Source: Alphaproteobacteria bacterium
GTDB lineage: Bacteria; Pseudomonadota; Alphaproteobacteria; HIMB59; GCA-002718135
Length of the DNA: 41,495 nucleotides
NCBI GenBank assembly: GCA_045560915.1
Contig: JBJKYT010000036.1
Location: 1 to 41,495, forward strand
Reading direction: 5' to 3'
The first letter of the stretch is position 1. Each line of letters opens with the position of its first letter. The notes under the pieces are model-generated. The model did no database searches. It worked only from the letters and a program-made list of their open reading frames with translations, and had not been told where the DNA came from. Of this stretch, positions 19,180 to 41,495 are shown piece after piece. Position numbers and translations under genes: made by a program.

Positions 19180-19779
19180 ATGAGTATATCAGATTTTATA
19201 CAAGGATTTATAATTGGATCATCTCTAATTATTGCAATTGGACCGCAAAATTTATATGTAATAAATCAAGGATTGAAGAAGAATTACATCCTAATTGTAG
19301 TGTTATTATGTAGTTTATCAGATAGTTTGCTTATTGTTTGCGGAATTTATCTATCAAATAGCTTACTAAATTTAAATGATTCTTTAATAATAACTATGAA
19401 GCTTATTGGTGGAATTTGGTTAATTTTATATGGAATTAATAAAATTAAAAATTCAAATAGTCACAATATTGAAAATAAAGAATTTAAAGAATCATCCTTA
19501 AATAAAATAGTATTCACAACACTTGCTATTACTTATGCTAATCCTCATGTTTATTTAGATACAGTTGTATTACTAGGATCGATTTCAGTAAATTTTGATA
19601 ATAAATTTTATTTTGGTTTAGGTGCTATAGTTGCAAGTTTTATATTTTTCTTTACTTTAGGTTATTTTTCAAAATTTTTATCTAAATATATTAAATCAAA
19701 AAAAGTTTGGTTTTATATTGATAATATTATGGGTTTTTTGATGTTGTTTTATGGATTATTTTTTATTTTTATGAATTAA
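19180..19779 (+). CDS. LysE/ArgO family amino acid exporter
   Basis: LIIAIGPQN and TYANPHVYLDTVVLLG motifs. Confidence 0.9.
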   Translation: MSISDFIQGFIIGSSLIIAIGPQNLYVINQGLKKNYILIVVLLCSLSDSLLIVCGIYLSNSLLNLNDSLIITMKLIGGIWLILYGINKIKNSNSHNIENKEFKESSLNKIVFTTLAITYANPHVYLDTVVLLGSISVNFDNKFYFGLGAIVASFIFFFTLGYFSKFLSKYIKSKKVWFYIDNIMGFLMLFYGLFFIFMN

Positions 19780-22770
19780 AAAATTATTAATCTCACTACA
19801 TAAAACATCAGCATTTTTTTTATTAAAAACCATTGGTGGTTTTATCTTTATAACATTATTAAATGGTCCATCAGTGCTTAATAATATACCTTTATGTCTT
19901 AAATTATTAATTAATTGAGAAGCTAAATTTGGATTAGGGAGTAAAGTATTAGAATTTTTGATTAAATCTATGCCAATAAACAATCCTCTACCACTTATAT
20001 TACTAATTGAATGAGGAAATTTTAATTTTAATTTATTTAATTTATTAATTAAATAATTACCAACTTCTTTGGCATAAAGCTGTAAATTTTTATTATCAAT
20101 AACATCTAACACAGCATTGCCTACTGCACATGATACGGGATTCCCTCCAAATGAATTAAAATATTCCATTCCATTATTAAAACTGTTTGCAATTTTTTCT
20201 GTAGTAACAACAGCTGCAATAGGATGTCCATTTCCCATTGGTTTTCCTAATGTTACAATATCAGGAACAATTCCATGTTCTTCAAATGCCCAGAAATTAT
20301 TCCCCACTCTACCAAAACCTGTTTGTACCTCGTCTGCTATACATAAAGCATTTTTTTGTCTTACTAATTTAATAATATTTTTAAGGTAATTTTTAGGTAA
20401 TACAACTTGGCCTCCACATCCTAAAATACTTTCAAAGAAAAATGAGGATAATAAATTGTCCTTAGTGAAGTTTTTATTTATTAGTTCTTTTGCCTCATTA
20501 ATATAGTTAGTTAACCAATTTTTTTTCTTACTTGTCCATTTGCCTCTTATTTCATCAGGCATTCTTAATACGTGAACATTTTTCTTTTTGCCCTCGCCAC
20601 CTTTGTTTTTGAATTTGTAAGGACTTAAATCAATTAATGTATTAGTATGGCCATGATAAGCATTGTCCATTACTAATACATTATTCCCTTTTGTATATGT
20701 TTTTGCAATTCTTAATGCTAAATCATTAGCTTCAGATCCAGTACAAACAAAAAATATTTTATTTAATTTTTTTGGAAATGTTCGTAACAATCTATCACTA
20801 TATTCATTAATAATATTATAAAGATAACGTGTATTAGTATTCAATTTTAAATTTTGTTCTACTAAAGCTTTGTGTACATCTGAATTAGAATGACCAACAT
20901 GTGAAATGTTATTTACACAATCTAGATATTTTCTTCCTTCTTCATCATAAAAATATTGATCTTTAGCCTCAAGAATATGTAGAGGTTCTTTATATGAAAT
21001 TGATAAATTTTTTCCTATATTTTTAATTCTTTTTGATAATACTTTTTCTTTTTTTTCTTTATTATATAAAAAAGATTGAGGGATTTTTAAAATAATGTTT
21101 GGATCAGGTGATATTTGCTTCCATACATCAATTAAATATTCTTCACCAACCCCTGGAAAATTATTAACTTCATTCAGTAAAGAAAGTAAAATTTGAAAAT
21201 GCAAGTGTGGAGGCCAATTTCCATTAACTTTGTACCCCCCTATTTCACCTATCCAGTCTCCTTTCTTAATAGTTTGTCCAATTTTAAGTTTCTTAAGACA
21301 TTTTTTAGATAAATGACCATAAAGTGTGTAAAATTTAAAATTTTTAATCTTGTGTTCTAATATTAATGTTGGTCCATAATCATATTTAAAATTGTTATTA
21401 TGTAAAATAGAAACTTTTCCATCAAGAGGTGCTCGTATTTGAGTTCCTTCTTTAATAAATATATCAATACCTAAATGAATATCTCTTTTTTCTGATGTAT
21501 TTAATGTAGAAATATAATGATTACTTTTATAAATTTTTCTCTTTTCATTATATAAACCAATTCCCACATCATCTTTTAAGAATTTTTTAACTAAAATATT
21601 TAATTTATTATTTGAGGGATTAGATTTTAATAAAAAACTTTTTTTATCAAAATTTAAAATTTTTTTATTAATGTCATTAAGTTCAAAATTAAATATGTTT
21701 TCATATTGTTGATTTTTAATTAATTGAAAAATTTCATTAAAATTATCTATTGGATCTAAATTACAAATCTCTTTTATAACAGCGATAAAAAAATATGGGT
21801 CAATTTGATGTAATTTAGACATCAATGACCAAGCATTTTTTTCACTAATACTTAAATATTTATTATTAGGATATTTTTTTCTTTGTTTAGCTGCCATTAC
21901 CAAAGTAATCGTTAAGCGAGATTTAATTAAACCTAGTAATGAATATATTTCATCTTTAGTTAACGGATTAATATTATTGTAACTACCAACAATGTTTTTA
22001 AGAGATTCATAAAAATTATTACTACTCATTAAAGCATAAGATAATGCTATTGATAAATCATTAATTGAAGGAGCATAAATTGAATCACCAAAATCAATTA
22101 AACCAATAATTTTATCATTTGATACAACAATATTATAATTATTTGGATCTCCATGTGTTACAGAAAATTTTAAATTCTTTATATTTTTTAGAACAAAATG
22201 TTCATATTGATTAATTGAATCTTTAATAAGTTTTCTTTCAAAACCTTTAAATAATTTTAAAAAATGTTTAGTCCATTTAATGTTTGAAGGATCCCAATCA
22301 AATTTTCTAATAGAATCTTTGTGAATAAAGCTTTGAAGATGGTTTGATTGTAAAGCTAATATTTTGCCAAAAGATTCTTCTATTTTAGTATTTATCTTTG
22401 ATTTGGCGTACATATTACCTTCAATATAAGTAAGAATACGAACTGCACAGTTTCTGTTTTTTTTATCTTTTAAAAATAAAATTTTTTTATGGCAAATTTT
22501 TGGATAAATACTTTTTAATTTTTTATTTGATCTTAAATAGTTAATTAATATATCTTGATATTTTAATTGATCTAAGGATTCTTTTGGATTTGAAATTTTA
22601 ATTACATATTTAGTATTATTTACTCCTTGTAATAAAAAATTTTTATCTCTTTCACTATTTAAAGATGTTAATTTAATATTTTTAAAATTCAGATAACTAT
22701 AATTATTTTTTAGCCATTTAGATAATTCACTAAGATTAATTAATGGTGGCTGTTCTTCAAAAACTGACAT
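19756..22770 (-). CDS. triple fusion: APH-like (hydroxylysine-kinase-type) kinase + M23-like domain + class III PLP enzyme (phospho-lyase type)
   Basis: [23 protein letters not shown] (kinase); HLGID, LYGHL, PPHLHFQ (M23); [34 protein letters not shown] (PLP domain). Confidence 0.88.
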
Positions 22771-22789
22771 ATTAGTGATATATATTTAT

Positions 22790-23698
22790 ATGAAACAAAT
22801 TAATAATAATTTTATCTTCTTTGGAGCCATTCATCAAGATTTTGTTTTTGAGCTAAAAAATGATTTAATAAAGTACAGAACTAATCCTATAAAACATAGT
22901 GAAAGCTATGGAGGTGTTGCGCACAATGTAGCAAGAGTTATTTCAAAACATGAAAATGTTAGTTTGTGTTCAATAAAATCAGATAGAGAAACCATTAGAT
23001 ACCTAAAAAAAATAGGAATCAATTTTGTATCTTTAAATAACAAAATTCAAAAGAGATATTATGGTATTTTAATAAATAAACTTAAAAAATTTCAACTAGG
23101 TATAGCAAATACTGAGGCATATGAATTATTTAAAAATAAAATTATTAATTTTCAATTTAAAAATAAAAATCTAATTTTTGATTTAAATTTCTCAAATATA
23201 TTTATAAAAAATATTATAAATAAATATTATAAAAATAATAAAATTATAATTTGTGGAACTTCACCTTTCAAAGTTTACAAAATTAAAGATTCATTAAAAA
23301 AAATTAATTGTTTGATCCTAAATAAAGAAGAATTATTTACTTTAACTAATATTCGAAATATTAATCAATCAATTAAATTTATTATTTCTATAAATCCAAA
23401 TATTAATTTAATTGTTTCAAATGGTGGTAATAAAACATACGCATATGAGTATTCAAAATTAATATCCATAAAACCTCCAAGAGTTAAAATAGTTAATGAA
23501 AATGGTGCTGGAGATGCAATGGCTGGAAATTATATTTATTATCGATCAAAAAATTATACATTAGAAAAATCTTTGTCGCTAGGTATTGCGATGGGAATTA
23601 TGCATGTTAAAAGTAAAAAGAATGCAAAAATAAATTTTAAAAGTATTAAAAATATAAGTAATAAAATCAAAATTAACAAAGAAAAATTATATGAATAA
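22790..23698 (+). CDS. psuK: PfkB family kinase, probable pseudouridine kinase
   Basis: GGVAHNVA and NENGAGDA PfkB signatures; overlaps psuG by 8 bp; ATG at 22790 preferred over GTG at 22775. Confidence 0.75.
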   Translation: MKQINNNFIFFGAIHQDFVFELKNDLIKYRTNPIKHSESYGGVAHNVARVISKHENVSLCSIKSDRETIRYLKKIGINFVSLNNKIQKRYYGILINKLKKFQLGIANTEAYELFKNKIINFQFKNKNLIFDLNFSNIFIKNIINKYYKNNKIIICGTSPFKVYKIKDSLKKINCLILNKEELFTLTNIRNINQSIKFIISINPNINLIVSNGGNKTYAYEYSKLISIKPPRVKIVNENGAGDAMAGNYIYYRSKNYTLEKSLSLGIAMGIMHVKSKKNAKINFKSIKNISNKIKINKEKLYE

Positions 23699-24605
23699 TA
23701 ATCAAATAAAAATAACTTCCAAAATAAAAGAAGCTATTCAAAATAATAAACCTATTGTAGCTTTAGAAAGTACTTTAATCAGTCATGGATTACCTTATCC
23801 AGATAATATTAGTGTAGCAAATGAATCTATTAAAGCTGTTGAAGAAAGTGGTGGCATTGCTGCTACTATAGGAATAATTAATGGAATAATAAAAATTGGC
23901 TTAGACAAAGATGACATTGAAATATTAGCTAGCACAAAGAATGTTGAAAAAGTCTCATTACATAATATCGCACTATCGCTATTTAATAAGAAAAATGCAG
24001 CTACAACGGTTGCTGCTACGATTAACATTGCTTCAAAAATTGGTATAAATTTTTTTGCAACTGGAGGTATTGGTGGCGTTCATTTAGATTCAGAAAATAA
24101 TAGTGATATTTCAGCAGATTTAACGGAACTTAGTAGAACTAAAATGTTTGTTGTGTCTAGTGGAGCAAAATCAATTCTTGATTTAGAAAAAACATATGAA
24201 AAACTTGAAACTTTAGGAATTCCAAGAATATCTTATAATTCAAATTTTATGCCAGGTTTTTGGTATGAAGAAACTACTTACTCTGTTGATCAAAACTTTA
24301 AAAAAATTAATGATATAGCTAATTATCTAAAGTTAATTAATAATTTAAACCATCAATCTTCTATACTTATATTTAATAAAATTCCTAAAGGTCAAAATAT
24401 TGAAAAAAAATTAATTGAAAAATGGATATTTAAGTCAGTTGAAAAAGCTAAACAAAAAAATATAAGAGGAAAAGATTTAACGCCTTTTTTAATTAATGAA
24501 ATCAATAAACTTTCTAAAAATAAAACTCTTGAAGCAAATAAAACTTTAATTATAAATAATTCTTTGCTTGCTGGGAAAATAGCTGAGGCATTTAGTTTAA
24601 TTTAG
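23691..24605 (+). CDS. psuG: pseudouridine-5'-phosphate glycosidase
   Basis: VALESTLISHGLPYP, ATTVAAT, FATGGIGGVH, DISADL, GAKSILD, GKDLTPFL. Confidence 0.95.
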   Translation: MNNNQIKITSKIKEAIQNNKPIVALESTLISHGLPYPDNISVANESIKAVEESGGIAATIGIINGIIKIGLDKDDIEILASTKNVEKVSLHNIALSLFNKKNAATTVAATINIASKIGINFFATGGIGGVHLDSENNSDISADLTELSRTKMFVVSSGAKSILDLEKTYEKLETLGIPRISYNSNFMPGFWYEETTYSVDQNFKKINDIANYLKLINNLNHQSSILIFNKIPKGQNIEKKLIEKWIFKSVEKAKQKNIRGKDLTPFLINEINKLSKNKTLEANKTLIINNSLLAGKIAEAFSLI

Positions 24606-25539
24606 ATAATTCATTTTTTAAAATTTTAAAAAAAGTTTCTGAATCTGCTTCAGTTATAACATTACAGTTTGGTTGAAGTTTCTTAACTCCTAACCAATCT
24701 ACAACTGTTTCACCCCTTGTTAATTCTGATTTTTCTTCAACTTGGACGTGCACTTTTTTTCCTTGGAATAACTTATGACTAAATAAATATGCAATTACAC
24801 AGGGATCATGCAGTGGAGATTCATTTGATTTATATAAATCTCTATGAAATCTTGAATAAAAATTCATTAAATCTGCAAAAAATATTGAAGCTTTATTATT
24901 ATTAGATTTTATAGAATTAATAATACTATCATTTACATTTACCTTATGTGTAACATCCAATCCCATCATAGTGATTGCAATACCAGAATTTAAAACAATA
25001 TTTGCTGCATGTGGATCAACGTATATATTAAACTCAGCAGAAGGAGTAATATTGCCAAGACATAAAGCAGCACCTCCCATAAAAATTATTTCCTTTATTT
25101 TATCTTTTATAGAAGGATCTTTTTTAAGACTTAATGCAATGTTTGTTAGTGGTCCCGTTGGACATAAATAGATAGGTTCATCAGAATTTTTACAAGTCTT
25201 AATTATAAAATCTACAGCATGTAAATCTTGGATTTTATGATTTTTATCTAATGTAATTGGATCACCATCAGTATCTAATCCACTTTTTCCATGTACATGT
25301 TCTGCTGTAACTAAATCATAGACAATTGGTTTATCTGCTCCTGCATATATTGGTATATCTTCTCGGTTTAGTAAAGAGCATATTTTTAATGCATTAAGTT
25401 TAGTATTTTCTAATGTTGTATTTCCCCCTACACAAGTAATTCCTAATAAATCTATTTCGTTATTTGCAATTGCAAGCATTATAGCTACTGCATCATCATG
25501 ACCTGGATCACAGTCTAAAATAATTTTTTTCTTTATCAA
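24592..25539 (-). CDS. inosine/uridine-preferring nucleoside hydrolase
   Basis: DCDPGHDDA, HGKSGL, GPLTN, AEFNIYVDP, LHDP; TTG start overlaps the upstream stop (TTGA). Confidence 0.93.
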   Translation of the reverse strand: MIKKKIILDCDPGHDDAVAIMLAIANNEIDLLGITCVGGNTTLENTKLNALKICSLLNREDIPIYAGADKPIVYDLVTAEHVHGKSGLDTDGDPITLDKNHKIQDLHAVDFIIKTCKNSDEPIYLCPTGPLTNIALSLKKDPSIKDKIKEIIFMGGAALCLGNITPSAEFNIYVDPHAANIVLNSGIAITMMGLDVTHKVNVNDSIINSIKSNNNKASIFFADLMNFYSRFHRDLYKSNESPLHDPCVIAYLFSHKLFQGKKVHVQVEEKSELTRGETVVDWLGVKKLQPNCNVITEADSETFFKILKNELSKLN

Positions 25540-26393
25540 ATAAATCCTTGTAATGGCATACTAGATCTTTGTAACCAATTATTAGATGAATATTTACAAT
25601 TTCCATCAATAACATGAAGAGTATATGCATGACGTGATTTATTAGAAGTGTTTTCACATGAATAATGAGGCAGCCTTCCATGTAACAAAACTAAAGATCC
25701 TTTTTTTACTTCTAAAGGTGTTGTTGTTTCTTCAAAAGGAGTATTATCAAGTGTCTTAAGGGTCATTACATTATCAATTTTAGTAAACAATTTTCTTAAT
25801 GGTCCTTTATGTCCACCTGGTGCTACCCACAAACATCCGTTATCTATATTAGCATCTTCTAAAGCTACCCAAAAACCTACAGCACTTTCTGGTTCTGTAT
25901 ATAAAAAAGTAGAGTCTTGATGACAAACTACTTCACCACCAATATTTGGTTGTTTAAAAATATACATAGATTGCAATAATAAAGGTTTGGAAATATTAAT
26001 TTTCTTAGCAATATCATCTAAATCTGATCTATGAGAGAAATTATAGAAATCTTCATCTAAGTCATGGAGAGCATGACCAATTTTGTTAATTACAAATTTT
26101 TTATCATTAACGAGATTCCCTTCATTATCAAAAGCTTTATCCTCAAAAAAAAATCTAATTTTATCTCCTGATTCTAAAAAATAGTTGTCATCTACATGAT
26201 TTTGATTTTTTGTATCAAAAATAGATTTTACTGAGTCAGCGTCAAAATCATCTATTAATTTTTCTGATTTATAAATTAACTTATCACATTCCTCATGAGC
26301 ATAAAAATCTTCTATAACCAAAAAACCATTAATATCCCAAAAATCTTGCATTTTTTGATCTAGAGGAAGATGGCTTCTATTAAACCTAAGCAT
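25536..26393 (-). CDS. PhyH family Fe(II)/2-oxoglutarate dioxygenase, PHYHD1-like
   Basis: YFLESGDKIRFFFE, INKIGHALH, QSMYIFKQPNIGGEV, HQD facial-triad motif, NGCLW, SRHAYTLH; ATG at 26393 preferred. Confidence 0.9.
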   Translation of the reverse strand: MLRFNRSHLPLDQKMQDFWDINGFLVIEDFYAHEECDKLIYKSEKLIDDFDADSVKSIFDTKNQNHVDDNYFLESGDKIRFFFEDKAFDNEGNLVNDKKFVINKIGHALHDLDEDFYNFSHRSDLDDIAKKINISKPLLLQSMYIFKQPNIGGEVVCHQDSTFLYTEPESAVGFWVALEDANIDNGCLWVAPGGHKGPLRKLFTKIDNVMTLKTLDNTPFEETTTPLEVKKGSLVLLHGRLPHYSCENTSNKSRHAYTLHVIDGNCKYSSNNWLQRSSMPLQGFI

Positions 26394-26397
26394 TAAA

Positions 26398-26628
26398 TTA
26401 TAGACCAATAAATTTTGTTAAAAAAGGGGCGCCAATCTTTAATATTTGTAAAATTTGAGGTAAAATAAATCTACCTGATGTTGCTAATAAAAATATAACT
26501 GCAAATATGACAAGAGCTATAATTAATTTTTTATATATTCCCGTGTTTTTATTCTTTTTTTTTGCATTATTATTAAAAATTAATAAAATAAAAAAAACTA
26601 CTAAAAACAATAACAATATTCTAATCAT
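26398..26628 (-). CDS. small hypothetical membrane protein (76 aa)
   Basis: Two hydrophobic segments flanking a basic loop, LATSGR motif; ends 4 bp before the dioxygenase start. Confidence 0.65.
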   Translation of the reverse strand: MIRILLLFLVVFFILLIFNNNAKKKNKNTGIYKKLIIALVIFAVIFLLATSGRFILPQILQILKIGAPFLTKFIGL

Positions 26629-26810
26629 AACAATCTAGATTTAATCATATATTCCTTTAAACGAAATTATCTAAAAAAAAGAATAAAATTCCCAAGCTTT
26701 CTAAGTAAAAATGAGCATACAAAAAAAAAAGAGTTAAAAAAAGACTATTTTAAGCCGTTTTTAATAGATTATAATTGATAATTTAAAAACATGTAAAATT
26801 TAATAATTTA

Positions 26811-26928
26811 TTAAAATAATTTATATATTTCAATACTTTAGTAAATAAACTATAAATATTCGCGATTCCAATAAAAAAAAGATAAAAATATTTAAAATAA
26901 TTACTATTTTTCAATAATTTAGTAACTA
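26811..26928. repeat. imperfect 37-bp direct repeat (26811-26847 and 26892-26928), each copy with an IHF-like core
   Basis: ttaaaataatttatatatttcaatactttagtaaata vs ttaaaataattactatttttcaataatttagtaacta: 32/37 identical by hand, 81-bp offset; cores TTTCAAnnnnTTA. Confidence 0.6.
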
Positions 26929-26973
26929 TTAGTTTTTTTTAATTAGTAACATCAAACAAAAAATATATTGAGA

Positions 26974-27021
26974 TCCTCACTTAGGAAAAGCCTAAGTAAC
27001 GTGATAAACTAATTCGAGGAG
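26974..27021 (+). promoter_or_regulatory. leader hairpin and strong ribosome-binding site
   Basis: ACTTAGG-aaaag-CCTAAGT stem (26979-26997); GAGGAG at 27016-27021; TCCTC at 26974-26978 is complementary to the RBS. Confidence 0.5.
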
Positions 27022-27028
27022 AATAAGT

Positions 27029-27250
27029 ATGTTAGATACTGTTAAGAGTTGGTTAAGGCAAATAACGGAAGTAGGCCTTCTGTTGATTGCTGCGGCTGTA
27101 GTACTCGAAATTATATTTGGATCAGCAGTTCCGTATATTGGAGTTGGGATTCTAGACAATATTATCGCGCTAACTGCAAAATTAGGTCAAGATGGTCTTG
27201 TTGGTATTATTGCCATTGGTATCATTGTTTGGCTATATTTGCGTAGATAA
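27029..27250 (+). CDS. small two-helix membrane protein, paralog 1 (73 aa)
   Basis: GAGGAG RBS 7 nt before the ATG; hydrophobic hairpin; about 40/73 identical to the next ORF by hand alignment. Confidence 0.9.
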   Translation: MLDTVKSWLRQITEVGLLLIAAAVVLEIIFGSAVPYIGVGILDNIIALTAKLGQDGLVGIIAIGIIVWLYLRR

Positions 27251-27277
27251 TCTTCTTAAAAACAAAGGAGTTCAACC

Positions 27278-27496
27278 ATGATGGATACAGTTAAAAGTTT
27301 TCTTAGAGGTATAATGGACGTAGCTATGACGGTTATTCCGCTTAGTGTAGTATTGGGTGTAATTTTTGGCCCTGCAGTTCCTTTTATTGGAGCTGATACT
27401 ATTGATAATATTTCTGCACTTGTTGCTGATTTAGGCGGAAGTGGCTTAATTGGAATTATTACTCTAGGTATTTTATACGCTTTATTTAGACGATAG
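27278..27496 (+). CDS. small two-helix membrane protein, paralog 2 (72 aa)
   Basis: AAGGAG RBS; shares DTVKSxLR, IFGxAVPxIG, DNIxAL and LGxxGLxGII with paralog 1. Confidence 0.9.
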   Translation: MMDTVKSFLRGIMDVAMTVIPLSVVLGVIFGPAVPFIGADTIDNISALVADLGGSGLIGIITLGILYALFRR

Positions 27497-27514
27497 AAAA
27501 TAATACATATTATT

Positions 27515-27547
27515 GAAGACCCTCTTTATTTAGAGGGTCTTTTTTTT
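27515..27547 (+). terminator. Rho-independent terminator
   Basis: AAGACCCTCT-ttattt-AGAGGGTCTT followed by a T run, about 20 bp after the paralog 2 stop. Confidence 0.88.
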
Positions 27548-28128
27548 ACATAAATAATTCTTATAGAAATTAACAGGATTAATAAAAAAATTAAAATTAA
27601 TATTTCTAAAGAAAATATATCTGAAAAAGTAAATGATTCTAATTTACTAATATTATTTAGTTGCTTACCAAAATATACAAAAGCAAAAACAAGAGGTGAG
27701 AAACCAATAATAGATGAAATAATAAATTTTAGTTTATCTATTTTTAAAATAGTTAATACTAAATTCTGAACAATTAAAGGAAAGCCTGGAATCATTCGAA
27801 AAATAATTAAATATTCAAATGTAGAGTCAGATAGATATGAATGAGCTTTAGATGAATATTTATTATAAAAAGAAGGAAAAATTTTTTTAAATAGAAAAGA
27901 TACAAATAGATAAAATATTAAACTTCCCAAAACTATTCCAATAATTGAAATAGAAAACCCAATTCCTATTCCATAAAGAAAACCAGCTGAAGTCATAAAA
28001 ATTGGATTACCTGGAAGGGAAAATGAGTTATATAATATCATTAAAGAAAGAAATATTATTAAGCTAAAATAGAAATTATGCTCTATTTTAAGTTGAATGA
28101 AATCTAAAAAATATAAAATAAAATCCAT
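27526..28128 (-). CDS. DedA/TVP38 (VTT domain) membrane protein
   Basis: SLPGNP, AGFLYG, GSLIFY, FRMIPGFP motifs. Confidence 0.8.
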   Translation of the reverse strand: MDFILYFLDFIQLKIEHNFYFSLIIFLSLMILYNSFSLPGNPIFMTSAGFLYGIGIGFSISIIGIVLGSLIFYLFVSFLFKKIFPSFYNKYSSKAHSYLSDSTFEYLIIFRMIPGFPLIVQNLVLTILKIDKLKFIISSIIGFSPLVFAFVYFGKQLNNISKLESFTFSDIFSLEILILIFLLILLISIRIIYVKKRPSK

Positions 28129-36123: not shown

Positions 36124-37487
36124 TTATGAAACTTCAGGTAAATTTGCCATTGCTTTATTAACTGATTCTTCTTCAAAAACATCATCGGCAAGCTTTCCTG
36201 TAAAATAATCATCGTAAGCAGACATATCAAAATGTCCATGACCACAAAGATTGAAAAGAATAGTTTTAGATTCACCTTTTTTCTTACATTCTAAAGCTGC
36301 ATCTATAGCTCCTTTTACAGCATGAGTGGCTTCTGGGGCTGGAATTATGCCTTCTTGTTTTCCAAAATTAACACCAGCTTCAAAACATTCTTTTTGACCA
36401 TAAGCTTTAGCTCTCATTAAACCAAGTTCATACAAGTGACTTAAATGATAAGACATACCATGATATCTTAAACCGCCTGAATGGTTAGCTGGAGGTAGAA
36501 AATCTGATCCTAGTGTATGCATTTTTATAAGTGGTGTCATTTTAGCCATGTCACCATGATCATATGCGTATTTACCTTTAGTAAAAGAAGGGCAAGATAA
36601 AGGTTCACATCCAATTATATCTATTTTTTTACCACCACGTAATTGCTGACCTAAAAAAGGAAACATTAAACCTGATAAGTTACTTCCTCCTCCGGTACAT
36701 CCAACAATAATATCAGGATAATCACCAGCTTGCTCCATTTGCAATATAGCTTCATTACCATTAATTGTTTGATGCATTAAAACATGTCCTAAAACACTAC
36801 CTAAAGAATATTTTGCTTTGCCTTCACTTTAACTACTGACTCAATTGCATCAGAAATGGCAATGCCTAAACTACCTGGATTATTAGGGTCTTCTTCTAAT
36901 AGTTTTTTTCCAAAATCAGTTAAAGAAGATGGGCTTGGATTACATTTAGCTCCAAATGACTGCATCATTAGTTTTCTATAAGGTTTTTGGTCAAAACTGA
37001 TTTTAACCATAAAAACTTCAATATCTATTCCAAACATTTGTCCAGCAAATGCTAAAGAACTACCCCATTGTCCAGCTCCAGTCTCAGTAAATATTTTTTT
37101 TACACCCTCTTCTTTGTTAAAAAAAGCCTGTGGTACAGCTGTATTTGGCTTATGACTACCAGTAGGGCTGACTCCTTCATATTTATAATAAATTTTAGCA
37201 GGAGTATCTAAGAATTTTTCTAGTCTTCTAGCTCTAAATAAAGGTGAAGGTCTCCACTGTTTATATATTTCTCTTACTGGTTCAGGTATTTCAATTTCTC
37301 TTTCAGTTGAGACTTCTTGGAGAATCAATCCCATTGGAAATAATGGTGCAAAATCATCAGGTCCAGCTGGTTGTTTTGTTCCAGGATGCAAAGGTGGAGG
37401 TGGTGGACTTGGTAAGTCAGCGTTTATATTATACCAAAATTTAGGTGCTTTAGATTCTTCAAGTAAATATTTAATTGTTTCAGACAT
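36124..37487 (-). CDS. trpB2: tryptophan synthase beta chain, TrpB2 type; single-base frameshift near 36828-36830
   Basis: [51 protein letters not shown]. Adding one A joins the two ORFs via [22 protein letters not shown]. Confidence 0.9.
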
Positions 37488-39446: not shown

Positions 39447-40112
39447 ATGATGTTTAAAAATGAAAAATTAGAATTTAATAGAATTCCAATTAAAGATATT
39501 ATTAAAAAATCTAAAAAATTTTATGAAATTATTTCTAAAAGAAGATCTGTTAGAGATTTTGATAGTAAAAAAATTGATTTAAAAATTATAAAAAATGCTA
39601 TTTTGTCTGCTGGATCTGCTCCTAATGGTGCTAATTTACAACCTTGGCACTTTGTTATAATCAAAGATAAAAAAATAAAGAAAAAAATTAGAATAGCTGC
39701 TGAAATTGAAGAAAAAGAATTTTATAATAAAAAAGCACCAAAGGAATGGTTAAAAGCATTAGAACCTTTGGGAACGGATGAAAATAAACTTTTTATTGAG
39801 AATGCACCTGTATTGATTGCTATATTTGAAAAAAAATATTCTTTTCAAAAACAGAAAAAAATTAAAAATTACTATGTAAGAGAGTCGGTAGGCATAGCTA
39901 CAGGTATTCTTATTACTTGTTTGCATATGTCAGGATTATGCATGTTAACGCATACACCTAGCCCTATGAATTTTTTAAATAAAATCCTTGATAGACCAAA
40001 TAATGAAAAACCTTTTGTATTACTAGTGGTAGGATATCCAGATAAAGAATGTAACATTCCTACATTTGCAAAAAATAAAAAAAAATTAAATGAAATAAGT
40101 ACTATTTTTTAG
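39447..40112 (+). CDS. nitroreductase-fold flavoprotein, iodotyrosine deiodinase (IYD)-like
   Basis: RRSVRDF, APNGANLQPWHF, AAEIEEKEFY, LEPLGTDENK, YYVRESVGIA, LTHTPSPM, RPNNEKP. Confidence 0.8.
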   Translation: MMFKNEKLEFNRIPIKDIIKKSKKFYEIISKRRSVRDFDSKKIDLKIIKNAILSAGSAPNGANLQPWHFVIIKDKKIKKKIRIAAEIEEKEFYNKKAPKEWLKALEPLGTDENKLFIENAPVLIAIFEKKYSFQKQKKIKNYYVRESVGIATGILITCLHMSGLCMLTHTPSPMNFLNKILDRPNNEKPFVLLVVGYPDKECNIPTFAKNKKKLNEISTIF

Positions 40113-40617
40113 TTTTTTTTAACTCTTCAATTGAAATTTCTTCATATTTTTCAAAAGGCATATGGATCCATGGTGAGTCCTCTAGATAATCTATATAATA
40201 ATTAGGCACAAAAGAAGAAACAGCTTTATGATATAATACAGCTGTTCTGATAGGCTCATCTAAATAAAAACCATAGAAATGTTGGAGCCAATCAATACTT
40301 TTTTTAAGAGTTATTCCTGAGTCTGATAAATCATCAACAAGAAGAACTTTTGATCCTATATTTGGACTAGTTTTTGCAAGATCTCTTGAAAAAGTTATAG
40401 CTCCTCTTCTGTTTTTAACTCCTTCACCTTTATAAGATTCAACTGATAAAATGGCCAATGGTACATTAAAAATTCTTGCAAATACATCCCCGACTCTCAT
40501 TCCACCTTTTGCAATGCATACTACTTGATTAAATTCCCAACCATCATCATGAACTTTAATTGCTAGATCTTCAGTTTTTTGATGATACTCTTCCCATGAA
40601 ACAAATAAATCAGACAT
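40102..40617 (-). CDS. type I phosphoribosyltransferase (purine salvage-like)
   Basis: CIAKGG, PRPP loop VLLVDDLSDSGIT, WIHMPFE. Confidence 0.85.
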   Translation of the reverse strand: MSDLFVSWEEYHQKTEDLAIKVHDDGWEFNQVVCIAKGGMRVGDVFARIFNVPLAILSVESYKGEGVKNRRGAITFSRDLAKTSPNIGSKVLLVDDLSDSGITLKKSIDWLQHFYGFYLDEPIRTAVLYHKAVSSFVPNYYIDYLEDSPWIHMPFEKYEEISIEELKKTKK

Positions 40618-40673: not shown

Positions 40674-41495
40674 TTATTGAGGTAATTCTCCGTCTATTCC
40701 TTGAACATACCAATTCATTCCAGCAAGCATACCATCATCAGCAACTTCACCTTCAGCTACCATCAGTTCTCCTGCTTGATTATAAATTGGACCTTCAAAA
40801 GAATGTAATTTACCATCTTTTATTGCTACTTCCATATTAATTGCTTCTTGAATTAAGCTGGCTGGCATAAGTTTTGTGTTATATGGAGACATAACAACCA
40901 TACCCTTATCCATTCCATCCCATGTATCTTCAGAAGACCAAGTTCCATCTACAACAGCTTGAGCTCTTGCTGCATAGTATGGTCCCCAAATATCTTCAAT
41001 AGCAGTTAAATGTGCATTAGGACAAAATTCTTCTTGATTAGACGCTTGTCCAAAAGCCAATACTCCAGCTTTTTCTGCTGCCTGACAAGGCGCAAAAGTA
41101 TCAGTATGCTGAACTAAAATATCAGCTCCTTGATTAATTAAGGTATTAGCTGCATCAGCTTCTTTTCCTGGATCATACCAAGTAAAAGCCCAAATAATTT
41201 TAATTTTAATATCTGGATTAACTTTAGAAGCCGCTAAATAAAAAGCATTTATTCCTCTAACAACTTCTGGAATAGGAAAGGAAGCAATATAACCTATTGT
41301 ATTTGTTTTAGTCATATGACCTGCTATATGACCAGATATTGTTCTACCTTCATAAAATCTAGCAGAATATGTTGAGACATTGTCAGCTCTTTTATATCCA
41401 GTAGCATGTTCAAATTTTATATTTGGAAATTCTTTAGCAACTTCAAGAGTTTGGTCCATATAGTTGAAAGAAGTAGTAAAAATTAAATCATGACC
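40674..41495 (-). CDS. BMP family ABC substrate-binding protein (purine/nucleoside type), 5' end outside window
   Basis: Frame stays open to the window edge (GHDLIFTTSFNYMD), then FEHATGYK, YSARFYEGR, FPIPEVVRGINAF, WYDPGKEA. Confidence 0.9.
   Translation of the reverse strand, partial: GHDLIFTTSFNYMDQTLEVAKEFPNIKFEHATGYKRADNVSTYSARFYEGRTISGHIAGHMTKTNTIGYIASFPIPEVVRGINAFYLAASKVNPDIKIKIIWAFTWYDPGKEADAANTLINQGADILVQHTDTFAPCQAAEKAGVLAFGQASNQEEFCPNAHLTAIEDIWGPYYAARAQAVVDGTWSSEDTWDGMDKGMVVMSPYNTKLMPASLIQEAINMEVAIKDGKLHSFEGPIYNQAGELMVAEGEVADDGMLAGMNWYVQGIDGELPQ

Follow-up and report, generated by a model that had tools for sequence, protein, structure and literature searches.

A conserved marine alphaproteobacterial locus proposed to salvage both 2'-O-methyl nucleosides and pseudouridine

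We analyzed a stretch of 41,495 nucleotides (nt; hereafter, the window) from an alphaproteobacterium of the HIMB59 lineage (assembly GCA_045560915.1, contig JBJKYT010000036.1), focusing on a compact cluster in which a gene for a PHYHD1-type dioxygenase lies beside genes for a nucleoside hydrolase and for pseudouridine catabolism. The window has a G+C content of ~26% and is one contig (C36) of a 1.04-Mb genome that is 68% complete. The list of its open reading frames (ORFs), together with Pfam searches, places five ORFs between 22775 and 26628, all of them at the positions given in a preliminary description of this DNA. These ORFs, and a promoter-like site upstream of the minus-strand genes, are as follows:

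22775-23698, plus strand: PfkB-family kinase, probably a PsuK-like pseudouridine kinase (Pfam PfkB, 9e-16; overlaps psuG)
23691-24605, plus strand: PsuG, pseudouridine-5'-phosphate glycosidase (Pfam Indigoidine_A, 3.5e-101)
24592-25539, minus strand: RihA-like Ca2+-dependent ribonucleoside hydrolase, TTG start (Pfam IU_nuc_hydro, 1.1e-103)
25536-26393 (ORF extending to TTG 26408), minus strand: PHYHD1-type Fe(II)/2-oxoglutarate dioxygenase, predicted 2'-O-methyl-ribonucleoside demethylase (Pfam PhyH, 8.3e-47)
26398-26628, minus strand: hydrophobic protein of 76 amino acids (aa), first gene of its operon (two transmembrane segments predicted by eye)
26768-26797, minus strand: candidate sigma-70-like promoter TTTACA-18-TATAAT upstream of the small ORF (11/12 matches)

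The kinase ORF opens with a GTG codon at 22775, and its first ATG, at 22790, is the likely start and the one given in the preliminary description. The coordinates also bear out two overlaps pointed out there: the kinase gene and psuG share 8 nt, and the dioxygenase and hydrolase genes are joined by a TTGA in which the TTG start of the hydrolase (25539-25537) and the TGA stop of the dioxygenase (25538-25536) coincide, with an AAGGA 5 nt upstream of that start. The two operons had been said to meet tail-to-tail; they do converge, but they interlock rather than simply meet: with stop codons at 24603-24605 (psuG) and 24592-24594 (hydrolase), the genes overlap by 14 nt. A scan for terminator-like sites found none between these two overlapping genes, and an Rfam search of positions 22000-28000 (E ≤ 1) returned zero matches. 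Since most homologues of the dioxygenase are 285 aa long, its real start is probably ATG 26393, 4 nt past the stop of the small ORF. The promoter upstream of the small ORF is a candidate only, because promoter-like sites overall (46) were not more numerous than in shuffled sequences (39.6 ± 7.0).

The dioxygenase carries a PhyH domain scoring 160.6 bits against a Pfam cut-off of 22 and covering profile positions 2-213 of 213. In a PDB sequence search its best solved relative was human PHYHD1 (2opw/3obz; E 4.7e-61, 209.8 bits, residues 21-282), followed at a distance by EvdO2 (50.6 bits) and PHYH (44.3 bits, E 1.2e-10). Similarly, an AlphaFold model built on 14 sequences (mean predicted local distance difference test score, pLDDT, 91.6) matched 2opw and 3obz in Foldseek with template-modeling (TM) scores of 0.88 and 0.85, the next best being PHYH at 0.63. 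The label "PHYHD1-like" given to this gene earlier thus held up against both comparisons, while no NCBIfam equivalog model reached its cut-off for the protein. For residue conservation, and as a search profile, we used an alignment of 14 dioxygenase sequences (A2), numbering residues from ATG 26393. K104, H107, Q141, H158, D160, H243, R254, and W273 are invariant in A2, and H158, D160, H243, and R254 align with their human PHYHD1 counterparts. We take H158, D160, and H243 to be the Fe(II) triad (HxD...H) and R254 the arginine that binds 2-oxoglutarate, roles assigned by analogy with the family. Six further matches to the PhyH family were found in the same ~1-Mb genome (on contigs C10, C16, C17, C24, and C44), a large number for so small a genome. 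In a search of the ORFs of all seven loci with the A2 profile, the window gene scored 444 bits, the ORFs of five of the other six scored 13-88 bits, and the remaining locus (L007) gave no match.

The preliminary description referred to a report that PHYHD1-type enzymes demethylate 2'-O-methyl nucleosides. This report exists: in December 2025, Stonkus et al. (Nucleic Acids Research 2025, PMC12709175) described, from functional screening and work in vitro, a 2-oxoglutarate-dependent removal of the methyl group from free 2'-O-methyl nucleosides, with release of formaldehyde, by PHYHD1 and its relatives. According to its main text, the active enzymes comprise FJS, from a soil metagenome, human, zebrafish, mouse, fly, fungal, plant, and giant-virus members, and three bacterial ones; nucleotides, 3'-O-methyl nucleosides, and an RNA duplex were not substrates, human PHYH was inactive on 2'-O-methyl nucleosides, and phyhd1-knockout zebrafish accumulated the free 2'-O-methyl nucleosides. 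Docking described in the same text sets the ribose against K102, H105, Q139, and W277 of PHYHD1, with the base stacked on F161. The counterparts of these five residues in the window dioxygenase are K, H, Q, W, and F; they are invariant or nearly so in A2 and lie in the motifs NKIGHALH, QSMYIFKQP...HQD..FLYTEP, and NWLQ.

The motifs also indicate to which branch of the family the enzyme belongs. In Supplementary Table S2 of the same paper, the FJS-type proteins read "..VVKG..WHQDSGYV.." in this region, whereas the window enzyme is of the QSMY type, and all eight occurrences of "QSMY" in that table are in eukaryotic or viral proteins and none in bacterial ones. On this basis the window enzyme falls in the PHYHD1-proper group. 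The FJS-type enzymes are described as having a Tyr in place of F161, the four ribose contacts being conserved among the non-bacterial enzymes (PMC12709175, main text). The FJS-type motif was not seen in any of the six further PhyH-family loci of the genome. Taken together, the best sequence and structure matches and the conserved residues assign the window dioxygenase to the PHYHD1 type.

The gene coupled to the dioxygenase is the only IU_nuc_hydro gene found in its own genome. Among solved structures, E. coli RihA (3g5i, 9.3e-78) comes closest to it, and RihA is also its best NCBIfam match, at 335.3 bits and below the equivalog cut-off of 433; the protein is therefore a member of the family and not a certified RihA equivalog, its base preference being judged from similarity as probably for pyrimidines. 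The N-terminal DxDxxxDD motif is present as DCDPGHDD, and aligning the protein to 3g5i shows equivalents of RihA Asp10, Asp15, Thr124, Asn158, Glu164, Asn166, His82, and His240-Asp241 (residue list from PMC2898832), a set that takes in the Ca2+ and ribose ligands as well as the catalytic His-Asp pair, with His-Arg at the base-pocket position of His227-Lys228. In RihA, the metal holds the ligand through O2' and O3' (PMC2898832). Because the Ca2+ chelates these two ribose hydroxyls, the 2'-O-methyl group would be expected to go first, and with the chelating site retained here, such an "unblock first" logic appears reasonable by analogy.

On the opposite strand, the PsuG assignment is unambiguous by sequence comparison: the protein scores 338.8 bits against Indigoidine_A over profile positions 2-290 of 291 and matches the solved PsuG structures 8k05 (7.1e-66) and 4gij (1.8e-65) over its full length, and an NCBIfam search returned no match at all. 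The kinase is less clear. The name psuK given to it earlier finds support in its PfkB family and its coupling to psuG but not in the curated pseudouridine-kinase model NF007355, where it reaches 26 bits and the cut-off is 540; its best NCBIfam matches are generic hexose-kinase models, all below cut-off, and among solved structures an unnamed carbohydrate kinase comes closest (E 1.4e-6). By eye, its motifs H-Q-D, GGVAHN, and GAGDA correspond to EcPsuK residues D16, G41-N45, and the catalytic Asp in GAGD, so that the predicted ribose-binding and catalytic motifs fit a ribofuranosyl kinase. Known pseudouridine kinases are themselves divergent, EcPsuK and AtPUKI sharing a mere 21% identity. The genome encodes five other PfkB kinases; this one adjoins psuG in all 13 loci from the named genome collections described below, and also in Ca. 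Tethybacter, and we tentatively assign it to pseudouridine on the strength of its family and of its coupling to psuG.

The arrangement is no chance juxtaposition. The small ORF, the dioxygenase, the hydrolase, and the convergent psuG are kept together in 30 of 30 related loci, and all 13 loci from named genome collections (a "MarineAlpha5" bin and AG-numbered "uncultured Alphaproteobacteria" records) keep the arrangement with the kinase included; the two sets, 43 loci together, may share genomes. Across these 43 loci, the hydrolase start always overlaps or abuts the dioxygenase stop, by a TTGA in 4, by an 8-nt ATGnnTAA overlap in 37, and by abutment in 2, and the small-ORF stop overlaps the dioxygenase ATG in most of them. 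The start/stop overlap is thus retained while the family's dioxygenases and hydrolases have diverged to ~65% identity.

An orthologue of the dioxygenase (E ≤ 1e-40) was found in 32 of 36 other genomes of the organism's own family, representing seven of the nine genera sampled, and family-wide searches recovered IU_nuc_hydro and Indigoidine_A genes in the same 32 genomes. Searches missed the dioxygenase, hydrolase, and PsuG in G001 (67% complete), G006 (84%), and G017 (90%); in G019 (88% complete) they missed the dioxygenase and PsuG and returned only a distant hydrolase paralogue. The sister family yielded no dioxygenase orthologue in its 24 genomes, and in none of these 24 was a RihA-like hydrolase or PsuG found either. 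This pattern of presence and absence is that expected of a single functional block, though the related genomes are not independent of one another.

We also scanned one genome per species with the A2 profile and retained the best 80 of at least 596 matches. For the 67 loci outside the family (50-58% identity to the dioxygenase), up to two ORFs on each side, 250 in all, were assigned with Pfam, and tblastn searches with the window's own proteins were added. A nucleoside-metabolism gene was found near the dioxygenase orthologue in 23 of the 67 loci, three of which (L089, L098, and L107) rest on one less specific family each. Judging by how few nucleoside genes a genome holds, this frequency would lie far above chance. 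Nine loci from Woeseiaceae and other Gammaproteobacteria contain parts of a gene order that, when complete, reads dioxygenase, pyrimidine-nucleoside phosphorylase (PYNP), CNT nucleoside transporter, hydrolase, the last being present in six of the nine. In seven loci from Kiloniellaceae, Pelagibius, Denitrobaculum, and Rhodospirillales, a phosphorylase and/or a DeoB-like mutase lies upstream of the dioxygenase, while the gene downstream of it encodes a 5'-nucleotidase or an adenosine deaminase. A phosphorylase and/or mutase is also found in two Dongiaceae loci, and the three Acidimicrobiales loci have a phosphorylase with adenosine deaminase, PNP_UDP_1 with a LOG-like protein, and DeoC, respectively. 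DeoC is also the partner in a locus from an alphaproteobacterial metagenome-assembled genome, and in Ca. Tethybacter castellensis, DeoC and a nucleoside deoxyribosyltransferase lie upstream of the dioxygenase, with psuK and psuG directly downstream on the same strand. In a quick tree (with Shimodaira-Hasegawa-like approximate likelihood ratio test support, SH-aLRT), the linked loci group into seven clades, which track taxonomy and vary both in their partners and in the order of the genes. The preliminary description had called for such a neighborhood analysis, holding that an absence of recurring linkage to nucleoside genes in other genomes would speak against it; linkage does recur, in 23 of 67 loci, and this objection thus falls away.

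Five loci from Woeseiaceae and other Gammaproteobacteria (L075, L076, L081, L093, and L097) additionally encode, upstream and on the opposite strand, a TonB-dependent receptor and an Amidohydro_1 protein. The position of these genes beside the operon suggests an outer-membrane route of uptake for nucleosides or related compounds.

The 76-aa protein at the head of the operon has no Pfam or NCBIfam match, and a search of the ESM Atlas returned clusters of "hypothetical protein" only. It is nonetheless a real, conserved gene: it precedes the dioxygenase in 43 of 43 family loci and keeps the C-terminal motif ATSG-(R/K)-F..PQ.L..K...PF.TK.IG. With this protein as query, no counterpart was found in the 67 loci of other taxa. 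The 400 nt upstream of the small ORF hold no element conserved beyond the closest relatives, the sole conserved block belonging to the divergent tm73 gene. Contigs from RNA libraries (≥ 90% likeness; four marine runs from four studies) cover parts of all five genes at summed depths of 0-15; they indicate presence in RNA libraries only and are no proof of transcription, just as gaps in them prove nothing. One such contig has 0 mismatches over 265 nt within the dioxygenase gene, another (26143-26508) runs from the dioxygenase gene across into the small ORF, and a further one extends to 26728.

2'-O-methylation and pseudouridine are the two commonest ribose-level and C-glycosidic RNA modifications, and the corresponding nucleosides are plentiful in eukaryotic rRNA and not readily attacked by the usual nucleoside enzymes. 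On the literature and the comparative genomics given above, we propose, with a probability of roughly 0.7, that the five-gene locus is a block-inherited system for the salvage of both. Free 2'-O-methyl nucleosides would be taken up or released by RNA turnover, and the dioxygenase, using Fe(II), 2-oxoglutarate, and O2, would hydroxylate their 2'-O-methyl group; the resulting hemiacetal would collapse to formaldehyde and an ordinary ribonucleoside. The translationally coupled hydrolase, holding the ribose by its 2'- and 3'-hydroxyls on Ca2+, could then split this product into base and ribose, demethylation thus presumably preceding hydrolysis. In the convergent plus-strand operon, the kinase would phosphorylate pseudouridine, and PsuG would split the C-glycosidic bond to give uracil and ribose-5-phosphate. 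Both branches would supply pyrimidine base and ribose, and the uracil may be recycled by Upp, which the genome encodes. We infer both that the hydrolase takes over the product of the dioxygenase and that the two operons act as one pathway.

Several observations weigh against this proposal, and the other explanations of the locus draw on them in part. The bacterial enzymes assayed by Stonkus et al. are FJS-type, with an active-site context different from that of the window's group (PMC12709175, Supplementary Table S2). S154 of PHYHD1, which is described there as hydrogen-bonding to purine bases and is tied to purine preference rather than to activity, is a Val in the window enzyme ("GGEVVCHQD" versus "GGEVSPHQD"). 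The extra alpha-helix that the same text describes at the mouth of the PHYHD1 cavity (human Q56-L71) corresponds to a 4-residue gap in the alignment, and in the model, residues 51-70 have mean pLDDT values of 70 and 59, with a short helix only at 70-73. The replaced serine and the position of the assayed bacterial enzymes outside the PHYHD1-type group would suit a general nucleoside salvage locus whose dioxygenase acts on some other modified nucleoside, whether a 2'-O-alkyl or a base-modified species, as would the family's broad tolerance at the base (Table 1 of PMC12709175). Set against this, the four docked ribose contacts and the metal and 2-oxoglutarate ligands are all conserved, and the tested enzymes are reported in the main text to be 2'-O-specific and inactive on 3'-O-modified nucleosides and nucleotides; such a substrate therefore seems improbable to us. 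For the other branch, the kinase sequence alone cannot assign specificity for pseudouridine.

The order of the two minus-strand steps is likewise open to challenge. The preliminary description held that hydrolases of this family need the 2'-hydroxyl of the ribose, and the chelating Ca2+ site behind this view is conserved here; as a general rule, however, it does not stand, as the nucleoside hydrolases LbNH, AgNH, and RK9NH are reported to cleave 2'-O-methyl nucleosides directly (PMC12709175 and PMC6278475), and prior demethylation is therefore not universally needed. The hydrolase could then act first and release base and 2-O-methylribose, the dioxygenase following on the sugar or serving both sugar and nucleoside. 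In keeping with this, "methylribose" appears only once in the main text of PMC12709175, in its introduction, and Table 1 includes no free sugar. We give this reversed order only a small chance, because the PHYHD1 family is described as efficient on intact nucleosides (PMC12709175, main text) and the stacking residue F161 is conserved here, the hydrolase retains the canonical Ca2+ site for chelation of O2' and O3', and the dioxygenase precedes the hydrolase in gene order.

The same chemistry could also serve detoxification rather than nutrition, clearing 2'-O-methyl nucleosides and pseudouridine that arise from the cell's own RNA before they are phosphorylated and misused. The main text of PMC12709175 does propose harm from accumulating 2'-O-methyl nucleosides, which build up in the knockout zebrafish, and the window cluster includes no transporter gene. 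Yet the Woeseiaceae orthologue belongs to the same operon as a CNT nucleoside transporter and has a TonB receptor gene next to it, an arrangement indicative of uptake, and the sister family, with similarly small genomes, lacks all three genes in the 24 genomes searched, so that the locus is not a housekeeping need; we regard detoxification as rather unlikely, if somewhat less so than the two foregoing alternatives. Finally, the dioxygenase might have nothing to do with nucleoside metabolism and owe its place to history, kept in position within one family. Conservation within the family is expected from shared ancestry, and synteny there can reflect ancestry alone; outside it, 44 of the 67 loci have no nucleoside gene within two ORFs per side, these being mostly from Pyrinomonadaceae and other Acidobacteriota (with LexA and Ysc84 adjoining), Niveispirillum (chorismate synthase), and Kiloniella, and a single origin of the linkage is compatible with the quick tree, whose backbone is unresolved. 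This reading is disfavored, and we consider it very improbable, given the start/stop overlap with the hydrolase that outlasts divergence to ~65% identity, the shared presence/absence pattern of dioxygenase, hydrolase, and PsuG, the differing nucleoside partners in seven clades, and eukaryotic orthologues whose function has been shown experimentally (PMC12709175, main text). None of these four alternatives is favored by the data over the salvage of both modified nucleosides.

Three findings together lend independent comparative support to the role proposed for PHYHD1, that of turning over free modified nucleosides. True PHYHD1-type enzymes occur in bacteria alongside those of the FJS type; one marine lineage has the gene in translational coupling with a nucleoside hydrolase gene and co-inherits it with pseudouridine catabolism, and in several others its orthologue sits inside operons for nucleoside phosphorylases, transporters, or deaminases. 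This places the enzyme in a complete putative bacterial pathway leading from modified nucleosides to base plus ribose, and gives it a first clear bacterial pathway context. It also suggests that modified nucleosides may be valuable enough as a resource for even very small genomes to devote a locus to them. Apparently nothing has been published on the operon context, on inheritance as a block with pseudouridine catabolism, or on the wider association with deo/nup-type operons: full-text literature searches listed no paper on linkage of a PHYHD1-type gene to nucleoside genes, and the main text of PMC12709175 contains neither "neighbo" nor "genomic context", its uses of "operon" and "gene cluster" referring only to the pyr operon and the RK9NH cluster. 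The FJS clone itself shows no gene neighbors, as it was recovered on a ~1200-bp insert (PMC12709175, main text). A broader picture can be put forward only tentatively, and we think it less likely to hold than to fail: that the five genes form a dedicated module gained and lost as a block, with which streamlined marine heterotrophs harvest both nucleosides from dissolved organic matter; that the 76-aa protein is a new functional component, which might assist uptake or tether the two enzymes to the membrane; and that bacterial PHYHD1-type genes are standard yet unrecognized in deo/nup-type operons of several phyla.

The surroundings of the cluster offer further observations. On the minus strand, the gene at 19756-22770 encodes a 1004-aa protein in which a phosphotransferase (APH), a peptidase M23 domain, and a class-III aminotransferase are fused and which matches NCBIfam PRK06148 at 1003 bits, short of the cut-off of 1128. 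The start codon of this gene is only 4-19 nt from the divergent start of the kinase gene, and both promoters must therefore lie inside coding sequence. On the other side of the cluster, 27029-27250 and 27278-27496 (both plus strand) encode tandem paralogous hydrophobic proteins of 72-73 aa that belong to no Pfam or NCBIfam family and are 64-100% conserved in related loci; a strong terminator-like hairpin follows them at 27515-27542. In contigs of one rRNA-depleted marine RNA library, the summed word depth over these two genes was 813-2938, compared with 0-7 over the nucleoside genes. Their look-alikes in the ESM Atlas (score 0.94) are named "hypothetical protein", the few taxon-labeled members being mostly Uroviricota. 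Upstream of the first of them, a block of ~100 nt (about 26935-27028) is kept in four related loci, unlike the remainder of the 400-nt intergenic region; the Rfam search gave no match to it, and it may serve these highly represented genes as a leader or regulatory element. Some 14 kb from the cluster, a phosphoribosyltransferase gene (40102-40617, minus strand; weak matches to xanthine/hypoxanthine phosphoribosyltransferases) adjoins one for a Bmp/PnrA-like ATP-binding cassette (ABC) substrate-binding protein (40674-41459, minus strand, cut by the window end), a possible pair for the uptake and salvage of nucleosides or bases. Two adjacent minus-strand ORFs, 36124-36777 and 36801-37487, match halves of the PALP profile (positions 151-295 and 4-116, respectively), which looks like a split or frameshifted gene for a pyridoxal-phosphate-dependent enzyme, or an assembly error.

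Compared with known systems, the locus confirms and extends known biology rather than representing a new kind of system, and its chemistry would not surprise a specialist. With PHYHD1 and the plant and Fadolivirus PHYH-like demethylases (PMC12709175), the window enzyme shares the PF05721 fold and the NKIGHALH, QSMYIFKQP..HQD..FLYTEP, and NWLQ motifs. It differs from PHYHD1 in being bacterial, in its operon with a nucleoside hydrolase, in having Val for S154, and in a helix region shorter by 4 residues. The FJS, Acidisoma, S. colocasiae, and Poribacteria enzymes are bacterial like it and, by the same source, share with the PHYHD1 type the Pfam family and the reported reaction.

At the level of the gene cluster, the RK9NH-RK9DPA candidate cluster (Aucynaite et al. 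2018, PMC6278475) likewise has a nucleoside hydrolase central to a proposed 2'-O-methyl nucleoside route. There, however, cleavage of 2'-O-methyluridine is the work of RK9NH itself, whose partner is an aldolase, whereas in the window, where Pfam assignments include no aldolase within the cluster, the dioxygenase precedes a RihA-like hydrolase. The pairing of kinase and glycosidase is the same as in E. coli psuK-psuG (yeiC-yeiN), although the window kinase is far from EcPsuK (26 bits) and the hydrolase falls below the RihA equivalog cut-off. Lastly, the deo-type operons (deoA/PYNP, deoB, deoC, add, nupC) that host the orthologous dioxygenase in other lineages are built around the phosphorylase route, whereas the window cluster, which contains neither PYNP nor DeoB, is laid out for the hydrolase route, to base and ribose.

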